Shown: one piece after another, positions 11,111 through 28,464 of the stretch
Layout: each line of letters begins with the position of its first letter
Position numbering within the stretch: the first letter of the stretch is position 1
NCBI GenBank assembly: GCA_963664705.1
Contig: OY761556.1
Coordinates: 2,912,001-2,976,000, forward strand
Length of the DNA stretch: 64,000 nt
Direction of reading: 5' to 3'
Source: Acidobacteriota bacterium
GTDB taxonomy: Bacteria; Acidobacteriota; UBA6911
The notes under the pieces: model-generated
Databases searched by the model: none
What the model saw: only the letters and a program-made list of their open reading frames with translations
Told to the model about the DNA's origin: nothing
Program-made: the position numbers and the translations under genes

Positions 11111-12256
11111 ATGAAGGAAATCCTTAATATCAGCCTTATGCTTCTTTTCTATGCAGGCGGTCAGCCGTATACCGTCAGTGATTATATTATTTCGACAATC
11201 GCTGGAGGCATGAAATCTGTTGGAGACGAACGGGAAGGCGGACCCGCCGAGCAGGCATATTTTGGTTCAATGTTGGGTCTTACGGTAGCTCCTAATGGCG
11301 CGATCTACGTTGCAGATCCAGGAAGGCACAGAATTTGCAAAATCACCCCTGATGGGAAGATGTTTAAGGTTGCGGGTAGAGGCAGCCTCCCGGAACCATG
11401 CTGTATCGAGACATCAGCACGGAAGGGATATCAATTCAGGGTCGAGGGGAAAGCCGCCTTTATTGACGGTGAACCGGCGTCTACCGTTGATCTGGATTTT
11501 CCAATCGGGGTAGCGATCGATATGGATGGTAACACTTACATATCGGATGCATCCAATAACCGCATAAATAAGGTGGATAAAGCAGGACTCATTTACACGA
11601 TAGCCGGTGATGGACTCCCAGGTTATAGCGGAGACGGCGGCCCCGCTAAGCAGGCGCGCCTCCATTATCCAACAGGCATAGCGGTGGACAATTTGGGGAA
11701 TTTATATATTGCCGATAGCGCCAATAATCGCATTCGAATGATCGACTCAAAGGGAATGATTCAGACCATAGCCGGAAATGGAAAATCAAAAGATAGCAAA
11801 AATGGAGATCTTGCAATAAAAGCCAGCCTCAAAAAACCATCCGGAGTTGCAGTTAACGCCAACAACATTGTCTACATTGCAGATAGCGTTGATGCTAGGA
11901 TCAAACGGATTAATCGAGATGGCCGTATTGAATTTGTTGCGGGTACAGGAAGACATGAATTTGTGGGGGACGAAATCCCTGCTATCCAATCGGGACTGTT
12001 TGCGCCCTCTGGCATTGCAATAGACGCGGCCGATAACCTGTACATTGCCGAAACGGGGCGCGTTCGGAAGATTGATCGAAATGGCATCATACACACAATT
12101 GCAGGTGGCGTAACAGCAGCAAGATCACGTCACGACGGCGTTCTTGGCATTCGATCCTACATATTTCCGGATGGGATTGCAGTTGATGCTGCGGGTAAGG
12201 TTTATATTGCGGATCAAGGCACAATCCGCCGCCTCACTGCTGATCACTCCCAATAA
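11111..12256 (+). CDS. NHL-repeat beta-propeller protein (teneurin-like)
   Basis: Repeated P-x-G-I-A-V-D...YIAD..N.RI units and GDGGPA. Confidence 0.92.
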   Translation: MKEILNISLMLLFYAGGQPYTVSDYIISTIAGGMKSVGDEREGGPAEQAYFGSMLGLTVAPNGAIYVADPGRHRICKITPDGKMFKVAGRGSLPEPCCIETSARKGYQFRVEGKAAFIDGEPASTVDLDFPIGVAIDMDGNTYISDASNNRINKVDKAGLIYTIAGDGLPGYSGDGGPAKQARLHYPTGIAVDNLGNLYIADSANNRIRMIDSKGMIQTIAGNGKSKDSKNGDLAIKASLKKPSGVAVNANNIVYIADSVDARIKRINRDGRIEFVAGTGRHEFVGDEIPAIQSGLFAPSGIAIDAADNLYIAETGRVRKIDRNGIIHTIAGGVTAARSRHDGVLGIRSYIFPDGIAVDAAGKVYIADQGTIRRLTADHSQ

Positions 12257-12279
12257 ACGGCATCCTGGGAGATTGCCCC
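12247..12279 (-). repeat. Palindromic boundary site, CGT class; arm contains the NHL gene stop codon
   Basis: Plus strand CTCCCAATAA-ACGGCAT-CCTGGGAGATTGCCCC (spacer 12257-12263). Confidence 0.7.
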
Positions 12280-14765: not shown

Positions 14766-14865
14766 GGTCGGTGCCGGTCCCATTTAACTACGCGGAGCGG
14801 CGCAGGCTTTGCGTTATGGCGTTATCTCCGCGAACGCGACATAACCGGCCAATCTCTGCCCGTTT

Positions 14866-16002
14866 TTAGGCTCTGCGGAGTTTGCCCGCCTCTATGATTA
14901 TTTTGGTAAGGCGATTGGAGAGCCGGTTGAGGCATTTGCGTTCAGCACTAATCGGCAGCCCTCGCCGAAACATCTCCATTGCACGTTGAGTTGCGTGCAA
15001 TGAATCGATTACCCCATCTAAACCAGTTCGAATCGGATCCGACGTTCTCGGCTGAGGGACTAAATGTCGAGGTTTTGAATGAGCCAGTTGAAACTCTCTC
15101 TGAAGATCCTTCAAGGCCACTTCGATATAGAGCATTGTCATATTCGGAGAAGTGTGGCCGAGTAATTTCATCAGCACAGGAAAACTGACGCCGGAGCGAA
15201 GCATCTCCGTGGCATAGGTATGGCGAAACTGGTGTGGAACGATGCGAGTGGAGATTTCGAGAGAATAACAAACTTCATGCAGATAATCGCGAAGGCCACG
15301 AACGAGCGCGTACTTGGTGCTGGGCCGCGCCAGAAGTCGACCATCAGGAGGACACGGATCTAGGAAACGAAAGAATCGCAAGCGTTGGATAATCGCGACT
15401 ATCGACGAATCCACCGGGACCATCCGTTCCGTTTTGAGTTTGCCAAGTGGTACGTGAATGGCCCACTGGCGGAGACCAGTCGAGCGGAGGCAATCGACGG
15501 GCAAATCGGCGCACTCGCCAATACGCATGCCGGTATGGCGGAGGAGCAGAAAGACATTCGATCCTAGATCGTTGCGCTTGACGAACTCCTTCTGCAGAAG
15601 CTGATCCTGTTCGGCGGTGAGCGGACGTGCAAGTCTATGCGGGCGGCGCGGAATATCTTCACGACGAATCAGGTGGGCAACTTGAGGAAGCTGTTTGGTC
15701 CACGCCAGTTCTATGAACAGAGGGCGCAAAGCAATGAGCTTACCAATATAGGTAGATGTGGCGAGCGGAGGCGTCTGGGCGCGCAAGTGGGACATCCAGC
15801 CGAGGAGGTGTGGCTCCCGCCGCAGTTGATCTAGGGCGTTTACCTCCGGGTAGTTGGTGCCGAGATAACTAAGGAAGTTACGTACGGTCCCGCGATATTG
15901 GACATGGCTTGCAGAGCCGAGTGCAGTGCAGAGCGAATCGACCGCGCGATCAAAGAGATCCACCAGTGGATGTGAGAGGGGAGGACGCCAGGAGCGTTTC
16001 AT
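14866..16002 (-). CDS. Tyrosine recombinase/integrase 2
   Basis: GMRIGE, K (GKLK), HQFRH and LGH...Y catalytic residues; ATGA overlap with the upstream recombinase. Confidence 0.95.
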   Translation of the reverse strand: MKRSWRPPLSHPLVDLFDRAVDSLCTALGSASHVQYRGTVRNFLSYLGTNYPEVNALDQLRREPHLLGWMSHLRAQTPPLATSTYIGKLIALRPLFIELAWTKQLPQVAHLIRREDIPRRPHRLARPLTAEQDQLLQKEFVKRNDLGSNVFLLLRHTGMRIGECADLPVDCLRSTGLRQWAIHVPLGKLKTERMVPVDSSIVAIIQRLRFFRFLDPCPPDGRLLARPSTKYALVRGLRDYLHEVCYSLEISTRIVPHQFRHTYATEMLRSGVSFPVLMKLLGHTSPNMTMLYIEVALKDLQREFQLAHSKPRHLVPQPRTSDPIRTGLDGVIDSLHATQRAMEMFRRGLPISAERKCLNRLSNRLTKIIIEAGKLRRA

Positions 16003-17045
16003 GAAGGAAGCCTCGGAAGGGGGCGGACTTGCAGCGCTACTGCGCGCGTATACTGCTGGTAAACGTCTTGTGGTGTGATCTGCACATAATGCAGGGTCGT
16101 CTGGATATCGGAATGCCCCATCAACTGCATAAGTGCCGGCAGGCTGATTCCGGCGCGTATCATATCGGAAGCGAATGTGTGCCGGAAGCGATGTGGGTGA
16201 GCAAGCGGAATGCCAGTGTGCTTGCGATGGTAACGGAACAATGACCGCAGTCCGGCCAGAGTCATACGGAACCCGCGGGCCGGTCCCTTGAGCGAGACGA
16301 AAAGCGCAGCGGTGGCAACCTGGGGTCGTTCCCTCCGCCGATAGTGGTCGAGGAGTTGCACTGTCTCCGGCGCCAGTGGCAGTAAGCGTATTTTGTTACC
16401 CTTGCCGCGTACGCGCAGCTGCGCTTCGGAGAGCAACAAGTCGTCCTCATTCAGCCCCAACACTTCGGCCGAGCGAAGCCCTTGAAGAAGCATTACTCCT
16501 ACGAGAGCCAAATCGCGAGCCGTACGGAAACTGGACCAAAAACGCGCCACCTCGTCCACCGAAAGCGGAACAAGTTGGCGTTTGGGCACTTTCACTCGCA
16601 GCCGGCTTATGGCTAGGCGCCGACGGCCTAGGCCCAGCGGTCCACGCCGCAAATAAACATGTTGGAAGCCCTGTGCCATGGACGATGGGGAGTCGGGGAA
16701 CTGGTTGCGAAGAGCACGATCGGCAACGCCAACACGGTGATTGATTGTGTAACTGGAAATCGGGGGTTGGTGGTTACACTGGAACTTCAGATAATCCTGG
16801 AGAGTCGATTCGGTCAGGTCGGCTGTGCAAACCTCAGCGGTGTGATGAAGACTCTCCCACCAGCGAACAAAATGTAGCAGGTAGTAAGCCCATGCTCGCA
16901 GAGTAGTATCCGCCAACCGACGGACATACTCGTGATCAAGGTAGCGATTGATCCAGCCAACCTCCTGACCGGTTTCTTGCTCGACCACACGAACCGGGCT
17001 TTGTGCTGTGTTGCGAATCTGCGGGCGAATCACACAAAATTTCAT
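15999..17045 (-). CDS. Tyrosine recombinase/integrase 1 (N-terminal SAM-like domain)
   Basis: GLRSAE, GKGNK, HRFRH, MGHSDIQTTLHY; likely start MKFCVIR at 17045. Confidence 0.95.
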   Translation of the reverse strand: MKFCVIRPQIRNTAQSPVRVVEQETGQEVGWINRYLDHEYVRRLADTTLRAWAYYLLHFVRWWESLHHTAEVCTADLTESTLQDYLKFQCNHQPPISSYTINHRVGVADRALRNQFPDSPSSMAQGFQHVYLRRGPLGLGRRRLAISRLRVKVPKRQLVPLSVDEVARFWSSFRTARDLALVGVMLLQGLRSAEVLGLNEDDLLLSEAQLRVRGKGNKIRLLPLAPETVQLLDHYRRRERPQVATAALFVSLKGPARGFRMTLAGLRSLFRYHRKHTGIPLAHPHRFRHTFASDMIRAGISLPALMQLMGHSDIQTTLHYVQITPQDVYQQYTRAVALQVRPLPRLPS

Positions 17046-17082
17046 AGCTGAGCCAAGCTCCAGAAAAGAATGTGTATCAGAG

Positions 17083-17400
17083 TCAGGCAGCAGGAAGTTC
17101 AAGTACCTGGTAGACTCCATCTTTGAATGCGATCAGATCTCGCGTCAGGAGTTCATCACGGGCGCCGGTAAGTTCGTGGCGGTGATGAATCTCGAGGAGT
17201 TCCGCCATACGTTCGTCGGAATAAAAACTCACACCATCCCGATTAGCAACAGCGACCAAGATTAAGTAGAGAAGCTTTTCCAATCGGGTTAGTCCCTGAT
17301 CGAAACCCTGCCGAAAAAAACGATGGTCAATCCAACTGAAAGAACCGCGGATGGTGCGGATTCGATCCGGCTGTAGTGGTTGAGGTCGTTTGTTCATCAT
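17083..17400 (-). CDS. Small winged-helix-like accessory protein
   Basis: FSWIDHRF...LYLILVAVANRDGVSFYSD...YQVLEL; resembles small ORFs I recall from IS21-like and recombinase elements. Confidence 0.7.
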   Translation of the reverse strand: MMNKRPQPLQPDRIRTIRGSFSWIDHRFFRQGFDQGLTRLEKLLYLILVAVANRDGVSFYSDERMAELLEIHHRHELTGARDELLTRDLIAFKDGVYQVLELPAA

Positions 17401-17479
17401 GCTTTCCCCATTTTGTACATGCCGAAATTAACGAAGCTATATGGAATGAATCAATATGTCGGGACTAAATCTAAAAAGC

Positions 17480-17983
17480 TCATGGGCGGCTGGGGCAACG
17501 ATCCGACCAACGTCTCTCTCGTTCCAGAACTCGTTCGAGAGCGCGGCGACATGCATAGGAACAGAAGCGTTGCAGGGGCGACCGCCGGCTGCGGTGGAAT
17601 TCTTGGTATCAACCAGGGCGATCGCAGGAACACGAAAATAAATTTCTTATAATGACCCTCGCGTCGCCGGCCGGGCCCTTGTTTTGTTGCGTGCGCTCCT
17701 TTTGCCGCACTCTGTATCTGTGGCTTTGAACGCGGCGAACCTGCTTTCCACCATCAGTTTTGCGGTACTTTTGCCGGGCTTTCCACTCTCTCCATTTTCC
17801 CGCCTCATTGCGGCAATGCTCGCTACAATAGCGTGCTCGGGGGTGTTCCGGCCGGAATATGCGACCGCAGCCTTTCAGCAAACACGCACGGGCGCGCGGC
17901 CATCTGGCTTTTCGCTTGGTATGGGGTCTTGTTCCTTTTGCTTGATTTTGAAGGAGAATTATCGGATGTTCACGAGGGCCCAT
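17480..17983 (-). pseudogene. Zinc-binding repeat protein with an in-frame TGA at a Cys position (nonsense mutation or Sec)
   Basis: CLLKGC..YCSEHCR is repeated as CDRPG*..FCSYACR; the frame stays open for 42 codons past the TGA at 17609-17611. Confidence 0.6.
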
Positions 17984-18348
17984 GGGAGTTGCCTCTCCCA
18001 GAAGCTCAAGCCTCGAGGGGGACCCATTCCCCTTCGGGGCGCACTGAGCACAATTGGATGCAATATCCTTAACCCTGCTCTTAGATTAGGATCGGAATTA
18101 AAACTGGCGGGATTACTCGTAAATCAAATTCAATTTTCCGAGCAGTCATAGTCCTTTGGGGTTGTAATTGCGGAGCACCCGAAAAAAGGCGGAGAAGAAT
18201 AAGGGAAAAGCTATTTATCTCACTTCATAATTTGAAGATTCACGGAAATTCTTTATAGACCATTTTTGATTATTGGCCGGTTATTTTGGACTTCGTGGGA
18301 GTAAGCCGAAAAAATCAAATACTTACACTTGATGGTACAATGATGTCG

Positions 18349-18903: not shown

Positions 18904-18943
18904 TTTACATTTTGGCGTCATCTCCCGCAATCGGACTTCTGGA
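18904..18943 (+). repeat. Palindromic boundary site, GAC class
   Basis: TTTACATTTTGGCGTCATCTCCCGCA-ATCGGAC-TTCTGGA; first 23 nt are identical to 23534-23556. Confidence 0.85.
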
Positions 18944-18995
18944 CCGGAATACTTTGGGATTTCGCAAATGGCGGATCAGCATCGGTTCAGGTAGA

Positions 18996-19400
18996 ATGAT
19001 TTTGTTAGATTATTTACTCCCACCCATTGCTTATGTCAAAAAGAGCGCAGCAAAAGTCAAAGGGTCTATTGAAGACTTTATTGATCTGCAGGAACACCGA
19101 TTAGATCCCGGTTATTGGACAACTGAGGTCTATGGTAAAGGGCGTAGATTTCCCATCTCGAAGGATGTTTTGCGGCAGCACCTTTCCAGTTTCCAACGGG
19201 CGCTTATGATTTTCGTTTTACTCTGCCCCATCGTTATTGGTTTGTTTCTGAAATTCGGAAATCAGCTTCAGCATCTCTGGTTCTGGGGTTCGATATCGCT
19301 TGTCGGCTTGTTTCTCGGACTCTGGCTCTTTATGCACAGATCAATGATCCGTAACGGATGCATACCAACCGCAAGGGGCGACAAAATAGACCGCACATGA
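18996..19400 (+). CDS. Hypothetical membrane protein
   Basis: Two C-terminal hydrophobic helices; start placed downstream of the boundary site. Confidence 0.6.
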   Translation: MILLDYLLPPIAYVKKSAAKVKGSIEDFIDLQEHRLDPGYWTTEVYGKGRRFPISKDVLRQHLSSFQRALMIFVLLCPIVIGLFLKFGNQLQHLWFWGSISLVGLFLGLWLFMHRSMIRNGCIPTARGDKIDRT

Positions 19401-19434
19401 CGGGTCCAGCTAAAAGATGTGATAACGGCCGGAT

Positions 19435-19470
19435 GGGTTACTTCCTCGAATCCGACTTCAGGACAATTGC
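19435..19470 (+). repeat. Palindromic boundary site, GAC class
   Basis: GGGTTACTTCCTCGA-ATCCGAC-TTCAGGACAATTGC (spacer 19450-19456). Confidence 0.75.
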
Positions 19471-19543
19471 ACCGGGCCTTATAGATAATGACGCCGATTT
19501 GTGAAATCATATAAGTGATTCCCTGTATCGTGAGCAAACACTT

Positions 19544-20173
19544 ATGTCCAAGTGGAACACACCTTCCGGTCTTCTGGTACTGTGTTTGTTTGTGTGCTCG
19601 AATTGCCAGCATTCCACCAAAAACGAGGAACTCGGTGTCTACTCTAGCTACTCTGACAAATATCTGATGGAGGACCTCGTTTACCATCTTCCCTACGATA
19701 TTGTGGTCCTTAGCGATCACACAGTGGAGTTGCCTTGCTTCATCATAGAGGATTTCAGCCGATTGTCACCTCATCCCAACCCGAGCACAATATCAAACTT
19801 TTTGATTCGTAACGGAGCACAGCACTTGGCTCATCTGACTTCAAGTGATTGCAATGGTAGCATTCACGGCACCGCATATCCCATCAAGAATAAGATCGTC
19901 TCGCGAGCCAATTTGGTGTTCATTCCAGCATCTGCAATTAATGAAGAATACAACCGAATACCGTGGCCTGAGATTTGTAAGCGACACGGAATACCGAACC
20001 CGCAACTTAACCATGGTCCGGTCATCCTGTCACGTATCGGATTCAACGAGCAGCGCACGGAGGCACTATTATACGTGGAGGATCATGCTGCTGGCGTCGG
20101 CGCATTATTCTTATTCATGGCAACATCGACGGGGTGGACTGAAAGGGCATCGGTAGGGTGCTGGGTTTCATGA
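19544..20173 (+). CDS. Hypothetical exported protein or lipoprotein
   Basis: Hydrophobic N-terminus with Cys; LSRIGFN...ALLY and C-terminal CWVS pattern. Confidence 0.7.
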   Translation: MSKWNTPSGLLVLCLFVCSNCQHSTKNEELGVYSSYSDKYLMEDLVYHLPYDIVVLSDHTVELPCFIIEDFSRLSPHPNPSTISNFLIRNGAQHLAHLTSSDCNGSIHGTAYPIKNKIVSRANLVFIPASAINEEYNRIPWPEICKRHGIPNPQLNHGPVILSRIGFNEQRTEALLYVEDHAAGVGALFLFMATSTGWTERASVGCWVS

Positions 20174-20257
20174 ATTTCCCAATAAACAAAACAGAAAACA
20201 GGATCTGCTACCAAAGTGACTCCTCATACTTTCGAGGAGATCTGACGTGTGCGTACC

Positions 20258-20285
20258 GATTTCCCACAATCGGACTTATGGGGAC
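20258..20285 (+). repeat. Palindromic boundary site, GAC class
   Basis: GATTTCCCACA-ATCGGAC-TTATGGGGAC (spacer 20269-20275). Confidence 0.75.
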
Positions 20286-20395
20286 CGTTATCCGGCGGAT
20301 GTGATAACATCGCCATCCTAACCGATGCGGATGTCGCCGCGTTGCAGAAGAAAGGCACATAAATCAGTACTGTCACTTACCCGACCGAGGCGCTC

Positions 20396-20911
20396 ATGCG
20401 GAATATATGCTATATCCTAATCGTCTTTGTGTTCTGCTTATTGCCTGTCCATTTCATACTGGCTCAAGAAAACACTATGGCTGTAAACAATAATATTTAC
20501 GCCGTTTCCTTGAAGGTTGGGATAGAAGAGATGAAAAAGCAATGGGACCAAATCGATGATAGTATGGGTGGCGAACGCGTAAGAACTGATTACAAAGATG
20601 TCATAGTACAACAGGATACTTTTATTACCGGTCACCTCCCATCGATGCTCGGAGACAGCCGAATTCAGTATTTAGATCACGATCAGTTGATTGCAAGATT
20701 CAAGAAACTGAAAAAATGTTTTTCGAGTTTGGTGATTCAGCCAGCCGAAATTGACAACGATCGGATTAAGGTTACTGTTACCGTTTATTGGATCAGCTAC
20801 AAAAAGCGAATGCTGCAATGTGCTCTTTCAGATTGGAGCACTGCCTATTTTCGTTTCGATTGTAATGAACGCAAGTATGTTTTCGACAAGGTTGAATTGG
20901 GCGGTATCTGA
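20396..20911 (+). CDS. Secreted hypothetical protein
   Basis: GAGG RBS; signal peptide. Confidence 0.75.
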   Translation: MRNICYILIVFVFCLLPVHFILAQENTMAVNNNIYAVSLKVGIEEMKKQWDQIDDSMGGERVRTDYKDVIVQQDTFITGHLPSMLGDSRIQYLDHDQLIARFKKLKKCFSSLVIQPAEIDNDRIKVTVTVYWISYKKRMLQCALSDWSTAYFRFDCNERKYVFDKVELGGI

Positions 20912-20916
20912 ATCGG

Positions 20917-20946
20917 ATTCTTTCCCATAACGCGACTTCTCAGGAG
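20917..20946 (+). repeat. Palindromic boundary site, GAC class
   Basis: TTCTTTCCCATA-ACGCGAC-TTCTCAGGAG (spacer 20930-20936). Confidence 0.75.
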
Positions 20947-21041
20947 CCAGCGAGAAAATTGTGGATTTCCAGAACTCTTTGCGACCACCAAAGCATTTAT
21001 TTGATAGGTGACTGTGGCTTCTATTGTCGATACGGATTTGC

Positions 21042-21998
21042 TCAGGGGTGAATTACTGCGTATCGGAAGTCCATCTGCTCTCTTTCAATGCCCTGCGAAA
21101 CAATCTGGATCGCGTAGATGGTTTGAGTATCTTCGAGAGTCCGGGCCAAGATCGTTTGGCCGACTTCTACCTGAATGGATTGCTCTCCAGCCCAATTTAT
21201 GCGGGTCTCGTCACCATGGGGATCGAATAGACCATAGAACTTTGCCTTCAGCATCGTGCCCTTCAGTTTTGTGATCGGTACGTCACAATGAGCAAATGCC
21301 CAAAAGGGAGACCAGCGCGAACGCTCCATTTTTTCGAAATAAAAATAGCCTGTCTTACCTGGATTGCCCTGGCTCCATTGAAGCTTATTACCATTCAGGT
21401 CAAGCCAAACTGCCTGATTCCTACCGCCCTCTGTGCTAGCTTGACGTATTTCACCCAGCGTGATCGGACCTTTGGATTTGAACCACACGGATGTTCGATC
21501 GTCGACCGCTTTCTCCAGAAGCCGCTTTTCTGTGAGAATCCGCCGATATTCCTTATCGACTTCAAAGAGGTAGCGCGAGAAAACGATTTGGACTTGTTCC
21601 TTCAACACTTTGCTGTCCAGGTCGGAAAATCTGAAATTGGACGGCAATGGCACAACCGAGAGCTCGGGAACCGCCAGAAAATCGCTGCCCATTCTACTTC
21701 CGCCCAAGCTGGACAACATGTATATGCGGCCCTTTTGAATCGGGTATAGCGAAGCGATCCGCAGTTCACCAGGCTTTCGGTTGCCCTTGAGCACCTTCAC
21801 AACTTTGACCTTTGCCGCTTGGAGTCCATCGGTGTCGACGTCGACCTTCTCTGCCTCAATTGAGATGCATTCCGCTATGATGATATCCTGGGCCCGCGCG
21901 ATGTAGCTGTCAGTGTCTTCGAATAAGGTGACTTTGATTGCGAATAGGGAGGACGCGCTCAGGCACAGCATCAATGTCGAAATAAGCCCTTTTTGCAT
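21042..21998 (-). CDS. Secreted hypothetical protein
   Basis: 318 aa; signal peptide ending SLFA. Confidence 0.75.
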   Translation of the reverse strand: MQKGLISTLMLCLSASSLFAIKVTLFEDTDSYIARAQDIIIAECISIEAEKVDVDTDGLQAAKVKVVKVLKGNRKPGELRIASLYPIQKGRIYMLSSLGGSRMGSDFLAVPELSVVPLPSNFRFSDLDSKVLKEQVQIVFSRYLFEVDKEYRRILTEKRLLEKAVDDRTSVWFKSKGPITLGEIRQASTEGGRNQAVWLDLNGNKLQWSQGNPGKTGYFYFEKMERSRWSPFWAFAHCDVPITKLKGTMLKAKFYGLFDPHGDETRINWAGEQSIQVEVGQTILARTLEDTQTIYAIQIVSQGIEREQMDFRYAVIHP

Positions 21999-22194
21999 AG
22001 CCTTACCCCAATAAATCCACTCGCTTGAGACGAGTGCGAATTCCGTGTATCAGCATGGTTATGTTGTTAACGGACGTCTTGCCAATTTGATGCAAACACC
22101 CAGCAATTGTTCCGTTAAGAATAGCCCTGCTGTAATACTTTTGTTAGAAAAATTCGATTCCGCATGGAACGCTCAATTATCGGTGTGGCGGCGA

Positions 22195-22226
22195 GGCAAC
22201 TTCCTCGATTCCGACTTCCTGGGACT
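22195..22226 (+). repeat. Palindromic boundary site, GAC class
   Basis: GGCAACTTCCTCGA-TTCCGAC-TTCCTGGGAC (spacer 22209-22215). Confidence 0.75.
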
Positions 22227-22291
22227 AATCCGGCCGCAGTGCTAAAATGCTTTGTAAAAAGGCGGCTGCAATCTTGTTACCATAACGGATC

Positions 22292-23461
22292 ATGCTGATA
22301 CCTATGGCTGAAGAGCAATGCAATTATGAAAGACTCTCAGTGGCACAGCGAGCGGCTTTGCGCATCGTATCCGATCGCGCGTCCCTCCTGGAATCCCAGG
22401 CTTACTCCAAATTGCCATCGCTTTTGAGGAACTGCGGTTGTGTCGAGGGCATGTTTGATGAAGCCATGCAGAGCATCCGCGCGAATGCAAGAGTAGCCGT
22501 GCATTTTCATCCTGACCGATTCGGTTCAAAGCCGTTAACCGTTGCTGAATCTCTTCTGAATGAGGGGCTCTACCTGAATCAATTTGAGACAGGCCTGTCG
22601 AGTGGTGGACGATCCGCGTTTCCCGGCGGTGATCGAGATCGATGGGAGAGAGACCTTTTTGGCGGCGCCTATCATGCTCCGGGTGTAACGGCAGCTGAGC
22701 GACCAAAGTATGGAGCGCTGATGCTGGTGCGCCATCCGGACGGGCCAACACCGCGTTTTGGTTCCTGCTATTTCATTCTTCGGCAATCCGTCTCCAATCG
22801 TTGCACGTTCACATTTTCAGGGAGTGAGCAAGCACTTGCGATTAAGCGTCTTGGGACCATGGAAAAGATGCTTAGCGTGATGGTGGCGTTACTGAGCGAA
22901 GTGGCGAGTGGTGAGGGCACAAAAGTTCCCTGGCCGCCATACGTAACCTCGACATTGGGCATTGAAAGCGTGACCATCGCTCAACTCCTCAATGTTTTTT
23001 GTCGGGATTTGTCCCTTCCCCCGACGGATCCTTCTACGGGAAAACCGGGACGCGTGCTGGATTCATGCGTTGAAGCGCAGGTTCATGGACCGATCGATTT
23101 GCGCTGTGACATTGAACAGCTTGTCGTTGACCCATCATTTGATGGAACTCCGATCGGAGAGACACTGATCGAAATCTCTCGAAAATACGATATTCCGATC
23201 CAGTATCATTGCGGATTTCAGCTTTCCATTCATGATGTCCCTGACAATTTTCGAGGCCCTGAAATGCCACGGCTTGCACGACGAATTGCGCTGAAGGGAC
23301 TAATGAATGCAGCCGTAATCGGTGCTGCCGAGGCCACTCTATGCTGGAAGCCTGAAACCTGGCAAGACTGGGGATCCTATGAGGAATCATTGCAACATCT
23401 AAAACAGCTCTGGCATGTGGTGGTGCACTATGGGAGCCCGCAACAGCAAGACAGTGCCTGA
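22292..23461 (+). CDS. DUF3626 domain protein
   Basis: HFHPDR, NQFETGLSSG, ERPKYGAL, PRFGSCY, EAQVHG, LKQLWHVVV. Confidence 0.85.
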   Translation: MLIPMAEEQCNYERLSVAQRAALRIVSDRASLLESQAYSKLPSLLRNCGCVEGMFDEAMQSIRANARVAVHFHPDRFGSKPLTVAESLLNEGLYLNQFETGLSSGGRSAFPGGDRDRWERDLFGGAYHAPGVTAAERPKYGALMLVRHPDGPTPRFGSCYFILRQSVSNRCTFTFSGSEQALAIKRLGTMEKMLSVMVALLSEVASGEGTKVPWPPYVTSTLGIESVTIAQLLNVFCRDLSLPPTDPSTGKPGRVLDSCVEAQVHGPIDLRCDIEQLVVDPSFDGTPIGETLIEISRKYDIPIQYHCGFQLSIHDVPDNFRGPEMPRLARRIALKGLMNAAVIGAAEATLCWKPETWQDWGSYEESLQHLKQLWHVVVHYGSPQQQDSA

Positions 23462-23490
23462 CATCACCTAGTGGGTAAACCGATTTGAAT

Positions 23491-23523
23491 TTCTAATAAA
23501 CGGCAATCGCAGAGACGGCACAA
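23491..23523 (-). repeat. Palindromic boundary site, CGT class
   Basis: Plus strand TTCTAATAA-ACGGCAA-TCGCAGAGACGGCACAA (spacer 23500-23506). Confidence 0.6.
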
Positions 23524-23533
23524 TCAAGGCTTC

Positions 23534-23576
23534 TTTACATTTTGGCGTCATCTCCCACAATGCGACTTCCTGGGAC
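23534..23576 (+). repeat. Palindromic boundary site, GAC class (closest to consensus)
   Basis: TTTACATTTTGGCGTCATCTCCCACA-ATGCGAC-TTCCTGGGAC (spacer 23560-23566). Confidence 0.85.
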
Positions 23577-23645
23577 TTTCGAACATTTTTCCAATTTGGG
23601 TAGGCATTATTGGGCCTTTTACGTTCTTGTCATCAGGAACCCGTG

Positions 23646-23676
23646 ATGTAATCCCAGATCCGGACTCTATTGGGAC
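23646..23676 (+). repeat. Palindromic boundary site, GAC class
   Basis: GTAATCCCAGA-TCCGGAC-TCTATTGGGAC (spacer 23659-23665). Confidence 0.6.
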
Positions 23677-23734
23677 TGTTTGAAATTAACACGTTTGATC
23701 CCGTGAGAAGCCGTTCTTATTTGCAGGAGCACAA

Positions 23735-24361
23735 ATGAACCGAATTCACCCTGTCGTGATTGCTTTTGCAGCCTTAATGTTTGCATATTGTCTTTGTGCA
23801 TTTGCGGGGGCTCCATTTCCAATGATTAGAGCAAGTAGTTCAAGCAATGGAAAGTTCCTCGTAATTGCGGAATACCAATATGAGAATCCCGCTGAAACAA
23901 TAAGACGGATCAACAAAATCATTTATCACGTGGATCAAAGGGAAGACTTCATTAATGATCAGTTCACAACCCTAGCTGCATACTGGTCGGATTCAGGGTC
24001 TTGGAATGTCCACCTCGATTGGCCTAAAGGAGTAATGGGAGGGCTATTGCCTTACATTTCCGATGATGGAGAGATTTTAGTTTTTATATCAGTTACGCCG
24101 CCCTTTTCGGGTATAGAGATTTTAAAAATTTATCGAAAAGACGGAAATCAAGGTGCGATGCTTAAGGCTTATCAGCTGAAGGATATTTGGACACCAGCGG
24201 AGATGAACTCACACGCTGATCTTATTTCCAATGGCCGACCATTATGGTTTACAGGGGGAAGTTTCAGTTTTTCGTCAGACAATCAGCAATTTATTCATAA
24301 GACTCCGTGGGGAAAAATAATTCGCATCAATTTGCAGGACGGTTCTGTTTCTAGAGAATAA
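23735..24361 (+). CDS. Secreted hypothetical protein (beta-propeller-like)
   Basis: AGGAG RBS; signal peptide; SSNGKF, ISDDGE and FSSDNQ blade-like motifs. Confidence 0.75.
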   Translation: MNRIHPVVIAFAALMFAYCLCAFAGAPFPMIRASSSSNGKFLVIAEYQYENPAETIRRINKIIYHVDQREDFINDQFTTLAAYWSDSGSWNVHLDWPKGVMGGLLPYISDDGEILVFISVTPPFSGIEILKIYRKDGNQGAMLKAYQLKDIWTPAEMNSHADLISNGRPLWFTGGSFSFSSDNQQFIHKTPWGKIIRINLQDGSVSRE

Positions 24362-24395
24362 ATCTGAGTAGCCATTTGAGGGCAGTGATTAACCA

Positions 24396-24428
24396 TTTGG
24401 CGTTATCTCCCACAACGCGACTTCAGGA
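24396..24428 (+). repeat. Palindromic boundary site, GAC class
   Basis: TTTGGCGTTATCTCCCACA-ACGCGAC-TTCAGGA (spacer 24415-24421). Confidence 0.85.
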
Positions 24429-24509
24429 TAAGAGCTTTCTTCCCAATCACTATTATGTTAGGCCAGGCAAGTTATATAATGACTGCACTCGGAGCAGACA
24501 GGAGTTGTT

Positions 24510-24677
24510 ATGAATACTGCACTTCTTTTTGTCGCAATGATAGGAAGTTCGGTTGCGACTGCTTGCGTTGCCGCAGCAAAACATAGGAGTGTCATTTTGT
24601 GGACGATTATAAGTTTAACTATTCCAATCCTGCCCTTGATCGTAGTACTCATCTTGCCAAGCAAGACTTCCGGATAA
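24510..24677 (+). CDS. 55-aa small membrane protein (not in the ORF track)
   Basis: AGGAG RBS; MNTALLFVAMIGSSVATACVAAAKHRSVILWTIISLTIPILPLIVVLILPSKTSG*. Confidence 0.7.
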   Translation: MNTALLFVAMIGSSVATACVAAAKHRSVILWTIISLTIPILPLIVVLILPSKTSG

Positions 24678-24684
24678 ACGGCCA
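24669..24684 (-). repeat. Partial boundary site, CGT class; arm contains a stop codon
   Basis: Plus strand TCCGGATAA-ACGGCCA (spacer 24678-24684). Confidence 0.5.
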
Positions 24685-24713
24685 GAACCGACGCAAGGAG
24701 GAGGAATTTGCAT

Positions 24714-24753
24714 TGTGGCGTTATGTCCTCGAATCGGACTACAGGACAATTAC
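24714..24753 (+). repeat. Palindromic boundary site, GAC class
   Basis: TGTGGCGTTATGTCCTCGA-ATCGGAC-TACAGGACAATTAC (spacer 24733-24739). Confidence 0.8.
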
Positions 24754-25479: not shown

Positions 25480-25729
25480 TTAACCGGCCAATATTGCACG
25501 TATTATGGAATTTCCCCATGAGATTTGGATAGGAAATCAGCTAAATAGCTTGTCCCATATTCTTCTTTTTTCTTCTTCAGATTTGATGCGAGCGGCTTAT
25601 TTACAGGGTGCTGCGACCAGCAAAAATGCGGGCCTACTTATCCACACATATTGGTTCTTGATCGTGTTATAGTCAAAGAAGCAATAGACTTCGCATACCC
25701 TGAAAAACTGGCAGAGATTGGCCGGTTAA
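25480..25729 (+). mobile_element. 250-bp non-autonomous relative of the dual-recombinase element, inserted into a CGT-class site
   Basis: Ends TTAACCGGCCAAT / ATTGGCCGGTTAA; both subterminal regions resemble the two ends of 14841-18284; flanked by ACGGGAA and ACGGCAA. Confidence 0.8.
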
Positions 25730-26143: not shown

Positions 26144-26174
26144 ATCCCAAGAAACGGCAATGTGGGAAGTAACC
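26144..26174 (-). repeat. Palindromic boundary site, CGT class
   Basis: Plus strand ATCCCAAGAA-ACGGCAA-TGTGGGAAGTAACC; 17 nt are identical to 25728-25744. Confidence 0.8.
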
Positions 26175-26538: not shown

Positions 26539-26771
26539 GCTTTGAAATCTCCTCCACCGAAACAAATTCGATAGAACCGTTGTCATACACTCGATAAATA
26601 GCCCTGTATGCTCGGCTCAATCGGATAGATCGCTGCCCCATTCGGTTGCCATGCAGGGGCTCGTCATGATAGACATAATGGAGTGATCGGTCTCTAGCAT
26701 GTAATATCGTGGGTTACAGCTGAAGTCGTGGTGACGAAGCTGCAGAGCCATAAAACATGAGGAGACCGATC

Positions 26772-27866
26772 ATGGCAGATTGTATCACTTGGGTAGGGAT
26801 GGATGATTCAGCAAAAAAGATAAACGTCGCAATTTTTCGCGGGCAGGAAAGTAACCCTCGAGAAGAACTTGTTGTATCAAACGACAGTACGGGGCTGGGT
26901 CGGTTAGCGAAAAAGCTAAGGGCATTTGAAGATGATGTACGGTGCGTCTACGAAGCGGGCGTTAATGGATACTATTTGCAGCGCTATTTGGCCAAACATG
27001 GGATTTCTTGTGAGGTTGCGGCCCCTTCGTTGACTCCGAGACGAGCGGGGAAAAAAGTAAAAACGGATAAGCTGGATGCGAAAGCCTTGGGCAAATTGTA
27101 CCGAGCGGGAGAACTAACATGTATTGTGATCCCGCAAAAAGAACAGGAAAGTCTGCGAGATCTGGTGCGTGCGCGAGAAGACGCATTGGAAGACCAGCAG
27201 CGAGCACGGCATCGATTAGCACGGTTTCTGATGCGACGTGGATTGAAATATCCGCAGGGCAAGAACTGGTCGCTTGGGCACCTAAAGTGGATTAAGAGCC
27301 TTGTGTTTGAGGATGATGGGGATCAAACAGTACTGGAGGAATATCGACAGGCGCTTGAGCAACAGACGGAGCGGTTGAAAACATTCCAGGGAAAAATCGA
27401 GGAAGTTGCAAAACAGCCGAACTATCAAAAGCGAGTCAGCTATTTGATGGCGCTAAAAGGCGTTCAGGTTCTGACGGCGATGACGATTATCGCAGAAGCG
27501 CTCGATTTAAGACGGTTCGTTGATGCGCCTTCGTTTATGGCCGCTATTGGGGTGGTGCCTTCGGAAAGCAGCTCAGGTGAACTTGAAAGACGGGGAAGGA
27601 TAACCAAAACGGGAAACAGCCACCTACGTAGGGTGCTGATCGAAAGCGCCTGGCACTACCGTCATTCTTCAGTAGCTGGCAAAACTCTCAAGAAACGACG
27701 AGAGTGTTTGCCGGCAGAAGTTATCGAGATTGCACAACGTTGCGATAAGCGATTGAATCAAAAATTCCGACGCATGCTCAACCGAGGGAAAGAAAGACAA
27801 AAGATCGCGGTTGCGGTAAGTCGAGAATTGGCAGGATTTATCTGGGCTATCGGTCGTGTTGCATGA
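26772..27866 (+). CDS. IS110 family DEDD recombinase/transposase
   Basis: VGMD, YEAG, KTDKLDA, ESSSG..RGRITKTGNSHLRRVLIESAW; GAGGAG RBS. Confidence 0.95.
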   Translation: MADCITWVGMDDSAKKINVAIFRGQESNPREELVVSNDSTGLGRLAKKLRAFEDDVRCVYEAGVNGYYLQRYLAKHGISCEVAAPSLTPRRAGKKVKTDKLDAKALGKLYRAGELTCIVIPQKEQESLRDLVRAREDALEDQQRARHRLARFLMRRGLKYPQGKNWSLGHLKWIKSLVFEDDGDQTVLEEYRQALEQQTERLKTFQGKIEEVAKQPNYQKRVSYLMALKGVQVLTAMTIIAEALDLRRFVDAPSFMAAIGVVPSESSSGELERRGRITKTGNSHLRRVLIESAWHYRHSSVAGKTLKKRRECLPAEVIEIAQRCDKRLNQKFRRMLNRGKERQKIAVAVSRELAGFIWAIGRVA

Positions 27867-28125: not shown

Positions 28126-28435
28126 TACTGGCTGATTTATTTATGAACCGAAGAAAACCAAAATGAACGAACAAGGAACGGATTGATTGTACTTGACCGA
28201 TCACTCCATATCAGCCAGGTATTTTTCTCACCTCTTCGAGTCCACGCTCCTCAACATCTTCCACCCAGGCGGCGAGGTTTTCCACGATGTGACGTGGTAC
28301 CGTTTGCAGCTGCTTACGCGCTCGCTTGCTTAGCTCCACCTGCAATATCATATCGATTCTAGTTATACACCTGTCAGGTGAATGTGTCTATCAAGTATTT
28401 GAATGCTTGCTTTTTCAAGTGGGAAATGAGGATGA

Positions 28436-28464
28436 CCCTAAGAAACGGCATTCGGAGAAACTAC
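28436..28464 (-). repeat. Palindromic boundary site, CGT class (last one before the tRNA)
   Basis: Plus strand CCCTAAGAA-ACGGCAT-TCGGAGAAACTAC (spacer 28445-28451). Confidence 0.65.

Follow-up and report, generated by a model that had tools for sequence, protein, structure and literature searches.

A Tn554-related class of actinobacterial transposons was described in 2012, e.g., Rhodococcus erythropolis pBD2 (Van Houdt et al., PMC3414803), where the section on the class gives no inverted repeats (IRs), spacers or targets. On entry, SE elements and Tn554 leave the target spacer on the left and the circle spacer on the right, while on exit they take along the left flank such that the footprint changes; the same source regards the way in which Tn554-like elements transpose as unresolved (PMC10214605). 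IntDOT needs two bp of identity at the first cleavage, with the second exchange being identity-independent (PMC2817482). Here, we analyzed a 64,000-nt stretch of an Acidobacteriota genome (contig OY761556.1, positions 2,912,001 to 2,976,000; henceforth the window) that carries a ~3.4 kb element (14841-18284) with two tyrosine recombinases and perfect 13-bp IRs at both ends.

With a probability of about 0.62, we regard this element as a four-copy Tn554-family transposon within pre-existing palindromic cassette-boundary sites, which would move as a circle via one-strand exchange finished by replication. This reading builds on the observed ends, copies, insertion point, TnpA/TnpB ancestry, one-sided 4-nt match and constant right spacer. 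In the following, G000 denotes this genome, other G numbers further genomes and L numbers the loci of relatives. The element and its junctions comprise

14817-14833, plus strand: left target-site part, i.e., the TGGCGTTAT extension and the palindrome arm (TGGCGTTATCTCCGCGA), read from the sequence and scored as a site
14834-14840, plus strand: left 7-nt spacer ACGCGAC, from the target and differing from copy to copy (sequence, relatives)
14841-14853, plus strand: left terminal IR ATAACCGGCCAAT (sequence; kept in relatives)
14866-16002, minus strand: recombinase B, 378 aa, matching the C-terminal part of Tn554-type TnpB, with a C-terminal helical hairpin
15999-17045, minus strand: recombinase A, 348 aa, Tn554 TnpA-like
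17083-17400, minus strand: winged-helix (wHTH) protein, 105 aa (HTH_36, E 0.014; phrog_19658, E 4e-7)
17609-17983, minus strand: Cys-rich, Zn-finger-like protein, 124 aa (open reading frame list, profile search)
18272-18284, plus strand: right terminal IR ATTGGCCGGTTAT (sequence, copies)
18285-18291, plus strand: right 7-nt spacer TTTGGAC, fixed to the element (same in the four genomic copies, L029 and L043)
18292-18302, plus strand: right target-site arm TTCGTGGGAGT, its first part TTCGTGGGA being 18292-18300 (sequence, site scoring)

A first-pass annotation had placed the element exactly within the spacer of a boundary site. Our inspection agrees, i.e., junctions, IRs, the four open reading frames (ORFs), the ATGA overlap of the recombinase A stop with the recombinase B start and the catalytic motifs are as claimed. 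Element removal also restores a consensus site, with the rejoined target outscoring all 200,000 random genome positions. The spacing needs correction: the arms of the target site are 6 bp apart vs 7 bp at the element's own junction, since the 7-nt spacer starts with the last A of the left palindrome arm. The R-K-H-R-H-Y motifs are intact in both recombinases, and R160, K188, H257, R260, H283 and Y292 of recombinase B are invariant among 27 aligned homologs. For recombinase A, the ATG at 17045 (348 aa) is the start used by homologs; counted from 17120, the protein would comprise 373 aa. Pfam searching of the element pointed to tyrosine recombinases alone, a DDE transposase not being among the matches. 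There are no cargo genes, and the gene of the Cys-rich protein is frameshifted in the copy at C1:5024300. Structure prediction for recombinase B gave a pLDDT of 38.7 from the single sequence, and the alignment-based model (63.5) matched generic recombinases only.

The four genomic copies fall into two subtypes, the other three being 99.7, 93.4 and 93.1% identical to the window copy. All four are inserted after GAC within one palindromic site family. Their left spacers are ACGCGAC, ATGGGAC, ACGCGAC and ATCGGAC, while the right spacer is TTTGGAC throughout. The site family has 33 matches in the genome vs 0 in a shuffled genome, clustered in some six regions with many small accessory genes. That all four copies and 11/12 miniature derivatives (see below) reside in these repeats supports their being genuinely targeted, as had been proposed. 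At the junctions, short-read contigs (runs X19, X20 and X23, of which X19 and X20 are one sample that may be the assembly's source) show loose ends matching the flanks of other copies, which argues against an assembly artefact. At C1:5618149-5625914, two directly oriented copies surround one 246-aa gene, a homolog of which sits between sites of the G123 array (L065:16126-17007).

To derive the junction rule, 66 loci were examined, of which 40 have both ends and 26 lack one; the duplicates L039 and L041 were excluded, and the right ends of L032, L033 and L045, missed by the automatic end finder, were read separately. For spacer positions 1-7, left and right bases are identical in 12, 12, 12, 34, 34, 38 and 38 of the 40 elements, compared with 10.7, 8.8, 9.2, 14.8, 13.7, 16.8 and 20.4 for shuffled pairing. 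That is, positions 1-3 match at chance level only, while positions 4-7 agree in 34-38/40. The shared part had been given as the terminal GAC; this is correct for the window copy, while the family-wide core spans four nt rather than three. The right spacer is constant in 8/8 groups, i.e., all six clusters with at least 90% recombinase B identity and at least two right ends as well as two further pairs, and in 7/8 of these the left spacers differ. In two of the four genomic copies, the element's 4-mer stays GGAC at a CGAC target, and similar left/right core mismatches occur at L030, L059, L137 and L153. The right spacer is therefore not copied from the target. Such mismatched copies also largely rule out a target duplication, as the first-pass annotation had argued.

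The same rule is seen in miniature derivatives, one of which lies in the window:

25480-25729, minus strand: 250-bp non-coding miniature with the same IRs in a CGT-type site (spacers TTGCCGT / TTCCCGT)

An IR pattern search in five site-rich genomes without recombinase A gave 31 matches, and among the 19 regions retrieved we found 11 further miniatures (183-255 bp) in four genomes. Using a matrix from empty G000 sites, 11/12 miniatures are located in array sites at the same base (p<0.001). Left and right spacers are identical in 3, 2, 1, 11, 12, 12 and 12 of the 12 at positions 1-7. The 4-nt cores (GGAC, CGAC, GCGT, CGCGT, CTGT, CCGT) vary in step with the class of target site; in one subfamily, the core has switched.

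With regard to known systems, the actinobacterial Tn554-like elements are closest, i.e., they form sister clades in the recombinase tree, show the same gene order and carry the terminal repeat TTRWCCGGCTAAT as here at both ends of 12/12 loci read. Their TnpB has ~640 aa and is usually accompanied by TnpC (DUF6262), whereas recombinase B has 378 aa, i.e., ~240 N-terminal residues fewer. Unlike this element family, they have no primase/wHTH module upstream, and the 12 loci read, from TnpC-bearing relatives, lack the 4-nt match of the spacers. Within L055 and L164-L174, a near-constant CAGGCA stands beside the TnpA-side IR and is either a fixed spacer or a conserved target. Tn554 and Tn6260-type TnpABC elements of Bacillota share the TnpA/TnpB recombinase families, the target specificity and the lack of target duplication; here, TnpC, a radC target and cargo are missing, TnpB is short (378 vs 611-828 aa in the strict Tn554 family) and the 13-bp IRs are perfect. 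No TnpC was found, i.e., the IR starts 12 bp past the recombinase B stop, and recombinase B has no TnpC similarity. This is no absolute criterion, since TnpC-less members of the Tn554 family are listed by Van Houdt et al. (PMC3414803). Furthermore, with each jump of Tn554 the 6 bp at the left of the donor site are passed on to the new right junction (PMC10214605), whereas the right spacer is fixed here. The element works like an SE/Tn554 element. It has the TnpA and overlapping downstream TnpB of the broad Tn554 definition and lacks the long TnpB, TnpC and relay of the strict one. The difference from Tn554 TnpABC noted by the first-pass annotation stands for gene content, while the kinship was understated, given that both recombinases are TnpA/TnpB homologs and the IR is common to actinobacterial Tn554-like elements.

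SE elements are likewise strand-biased, with target spacer left and circle spacer right, and likely follow a copy-out/copy-in route. They need IntA, Tfp, a large IntB and Srap, a four-gene set absent from this element by ORF content; the text of PMC9345347 on SE does not mention 'primase'. In CTnDOT, a one-sided short identity sets the first exchange and the orientation, as here, but IntDOT is a single arm-binding integrase, both strands are exchanged and the element is conjugative (PMC2817482). RIT elements are also small and IR-bounded with overlapping tyrosine recombinase genes, while BIM modules combine one recombinase with an unrelated protein (PMC3414803, PMC8138268). The distinction from RIT holds: RIT has three recombinases (RitA/B/C) vs two here, and the RIT-like rows L051 and L067 branch apart from A and B.

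The family is large: a length-limited recombinase search with a cutoff of E<=1e-20, which also admits other recombinases, gave 4010 protein clusters, and the best 120 of these show at least 75% identity and 367-381 aa. The full element occurs in 2/29 genus, 7/50 family and 8/137 class genomes (the class count includes this genome) as well as in 38/251 genomes of another family in the phylum. Target sites are found in 21/29 genus and 35/50 family genomes, many of the genus genomes being fragmented assemblies. No recombinase A relatives were found among the viral contigs scanned. On plasmids, both recombinases have their nearest homologs in the TnpA/TnpB pairs of actinobacterial Tn554-like elements (~35% and ~30%). 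Recombinase B matches residues 243-546 of a TnpB of 637 aa, with 29% identity over 312 aa (E 6e-30). As had been suggested, we placed both proteins in a tyrosine-recombinase tree (quick maximum-likelihood, 64 proteins, no bootstrap, midpoint root; the long branches are two frameshifted rows (L146) and unrelated rows). Recombinase A falls into the TnpA clade with L161/L055/L164 (SH-aLRT 96) and recombinase B into the TnpB clade (93), both apart from XerC/D, RIT-like and IS91-associated recombinases. IR and 7-nt geometry are kept down to ~40% protein identity, such that the expectation of conserved boundaries was borne out; that of conserved flanks was borne out in part, since 8/37 scored relatives are inserted in this palindrome and 29/37 elsewhere. 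By eye, the left flanks of several further relatives resemble arms at IS91-like junctions. At L059, L144 and L045, the insertion lies beside IR-like sequence (IR + 7 nt + IR), like a circle junction or tandem insertion.

The wHTH and Zn-finger genes, present as described earlier, turn out to be a swappable minority module: 31/40 elements encode a ~330-aa DnaG-type primase with CHC2, DNAG_N and Toprim domains, in most cases with DUF6431 in front of it, while the wHTH form occurs in 9/40 elements from two separate clades. In most relatives, the primase occupies the wHTH slot and DUF6431 that of the Cys-rich protein. A representative search with the wHTH protein returned 1080 unnamed homologs and no assigned function.

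Tyrosine recombinases cut each strand at one edge of the spacer. By this standard geometry, a target spacer on the left with an element spacer on the right is the bottom-strand product. Only this product is seen, and the homology is confined to the side of the bottom-strand cut, as would be expected if a single exchange were followed by replication. In the proposed mechanism, the two recombinases would join the element ends to form a circle with the predicted junction IR-TTTGGAC-IR. The bottom strand would be cut at the spacer's right edge, in circle and target alike, where the last 3-4 bases match; the mismatch of the other three bases would block the second exchange, and the intermediate would be resolved by replication. 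Such a bottom-strand exchange would put the target spacer left and the element spacer right, and exit by the same strand would keep the spacer unchanged jump after jump. Priming the displaced strand, or helping to copy it, would be the task of the module upstream, a primase in most relatives and the wHTH protein in this element. The sites themselves are likely owned by another system, with the Phage_int_SAM_4 recombinase of IS91-like elements as best candidate.

The 7-nt overlap with one-sided identity also resembles IntDOT (PMC2817482), and a possible footprint exists at C1:5876376, as would fit a CTnDOT-like exchange of both strands with the right spacer fixed by strand-biased repair or selection. 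Heteroduplex segregation, however, predicts both products and changing spacers, whereas the right spacer is constant in 8/8 clusters, and we thus judge this route unlikely. IS-like cut-and-paste of asymmetric ends (IR plus TTT) with a 3-4 bp target duplication would account for the four terminal spacer bases common to left and right in most elements, but hardly for GGAC right of a CGAC target (two genomic copies and the similar mismatched relatives) in an element with tyrosine recombinases and no DDE domain; we consider it highly improbable. Host XerC/XerD doing or assisting the exchange at dif-like array sites (IMEX- or pdif-like) has equally little going for it. The 11-6-11 geometry would fit, and there is a likeness between some arms and ACTTCTGATAA-GATATA-TTATGTAAACT at C1:2036985, a candidate chromosomal dif, but array sites show little conservation of the XerD-side arm, most relatives reside on non-dif targets and the element has two intact recombinases of its own. 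A Xer gene lies near this candidate dif (C1:2036985-2037012), as does the GC-skew maximum.

Whether the element is engine or parasite of the array had been left open; the evidence leans to the latter, and a parasite-only role is probable. Preferring another owner of the sites follows from IS91-like elements, which encode a Phage_int_SAM_4 recombinase alongside the Y2 transposase: because an array-type left arm precedes 13/24 distinct junctions in identical register (p<0.01) and the elements carry their own inverted site of the same shape downstream of the transposase, this recombinase is the best candidate. The element would also be an engine if A and B recombined site with site in trans, thereby shuffling cassettes. 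The recombinases must engage array arms to insert and so may do this; all four copies are inside arrays, miniatures occur in arrays of four other genus genomes, TGGCGTTAT sites are preferred in this genome, which lacks an intact IntI or IS91-type recombinase, and the two copies around one gene (C1:5621690-5622430) could mobilise it. Still, the array arms are unlike the IR, 29/37 relatives use other targets, the IR is common to actinobacterial elements and the IS91-like elements have their own site copy, which makes an engine role rather doubtful. An integron/attC owner was rejected, given no TIGR02249 (IntI) matches at E<=1e-40 in G000, G123, G124 and G125; 13/51 family genomes do match. A dedicated recombinase resident beside the arrays was likewise rejected: of 27 PF00589 matches, 19 from outside the element were inspected and proved to be XerC/D or prophage-/island-type, and no recombinase is common to the array regions, fragments excepted. 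IS91-like elements with an IntI-type N-terminal recombinase (L103-L120, L067, L070; G000:C1:5017958-5018343) are bracketed by two inverted 11-6-11 sites, the spacers of which often share the last 3 bases; these may be an undescribed cassette engine.

Several observations weigh against one-strand, replicative movement within sites owned by another system. Two of the 40 elements have no shared terminal base and four share only two. Right spacers are not immutable, i.e., TTCCTGT occurs four times in one miniature subfamily, against a single TTTGGAC. The element's own spacer TTTGGAC is found in an empty site (C1:5876376), possibly the footprint of a rare other-strand excision, such that the other strand may sometimes be used. 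The copies, like the genomes, are related, so the counts overstate independence, and neither the circle junction nor the empty-site joint was found in the short-read contigs. The wHTH match to the N-terminus of a phage replication-initiation family (phrog_19658, E 4e-7) is weak. With regard to ownership, 11/24 IS91-like junctions do not fit the array register. In this genome, the IS91-type recombinase is left only as a fragment, 4 kb away from one of the arrays, and there is no integron integrase, i.e., the proposed owner is absent here. Finally, G112, G119, G123 and G124 are site-rich and lack the full element, yet have miniatures; these show past exposure, which weakens the argument from the element's absence.

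More tentatively, the element may stand for a class, widespread and undescribed, of small transposons that move replicatively by tyrosine recombinases and have their own primase or initiator, a reprogrammable 4-nt address and miniatures that colonise and maybe drive a non-integron cassette system of Acidobacteriota. A full-text search found no account of the element, its IRs, the junction rule, the primase form or the miniatures; subscription papers and supplements lay outside it, so a prior mention is possible. In the sections concerned, Solibacter papers list phage integrases only (PMC3174227, PMC3469429). The family offers a minimal 3.4-4 kb model, the junctions of which already record the strand used, and miniatures of 183-255 bp define the needs in cis. 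A primase within so small an element would explain how a single-strand product becomes double-stranded. Two unrelated element types at the same repeat base are strong indirect evidence for genuine recombination sites underlying these Acidobacteriota arrays. The element would be a candidate for a compact retargetable integration tool if its target class is determined by four bases of the spacer.

Beside the occupied site, the window shows a run of empty ones:

18919-24749, plus strand: eight empty GAC-type target sites, mostly one gene apart (site scan)

Their arms start at 18919, 19439, 20258, 20919, 22198, 23549, 24404 and 24722. Aligned, the target-site core is a short 11-6-11 structure with no conserved AAC/GTT boxes. 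A matrix from the relatives' arms alone, ignoring the spacer, gave 137 genome matches vs 42 expected; the commonest spacer ends among these are GAC (21) and CGT (13), therefore two spacer classes exist. CGT-type sites (spacer TGCCGT) are found on the minus strand at 12247-12274, 26144-26171 and 28435-28462, i.e., opposite to the GAC-type, and this GAC(+)/CGT(-) arrangement is repeated in further arrays of this genome. The proposed resemblance of the IR to the distal left arm finds a measure of support in this genome: TGGCGTTAT is present at 4/4 occupied vs 12/37 GAC sites (p=0.0075), while it is dispensable in relatives, being absent from L029, L043, L046, L133 and the miniatures. Three array sites, all with TGGCGTTAT, lack exactly 5/6 spacer bases (C1:5884031, 5887798, 5894139) and are possibly scars or inactivated sites. 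In its long form, the left extension (AATTTACATTTTGGCGTTATCTCCCACAAT; 14795-14833, and likewise at other type-A sites) has, by eye, a promoter-like TTTACA...CACAAT spacing facing the next cassette. Near the array end, a 369-aa ORF (26757-27866) may encode an IS110-family-like transposase.

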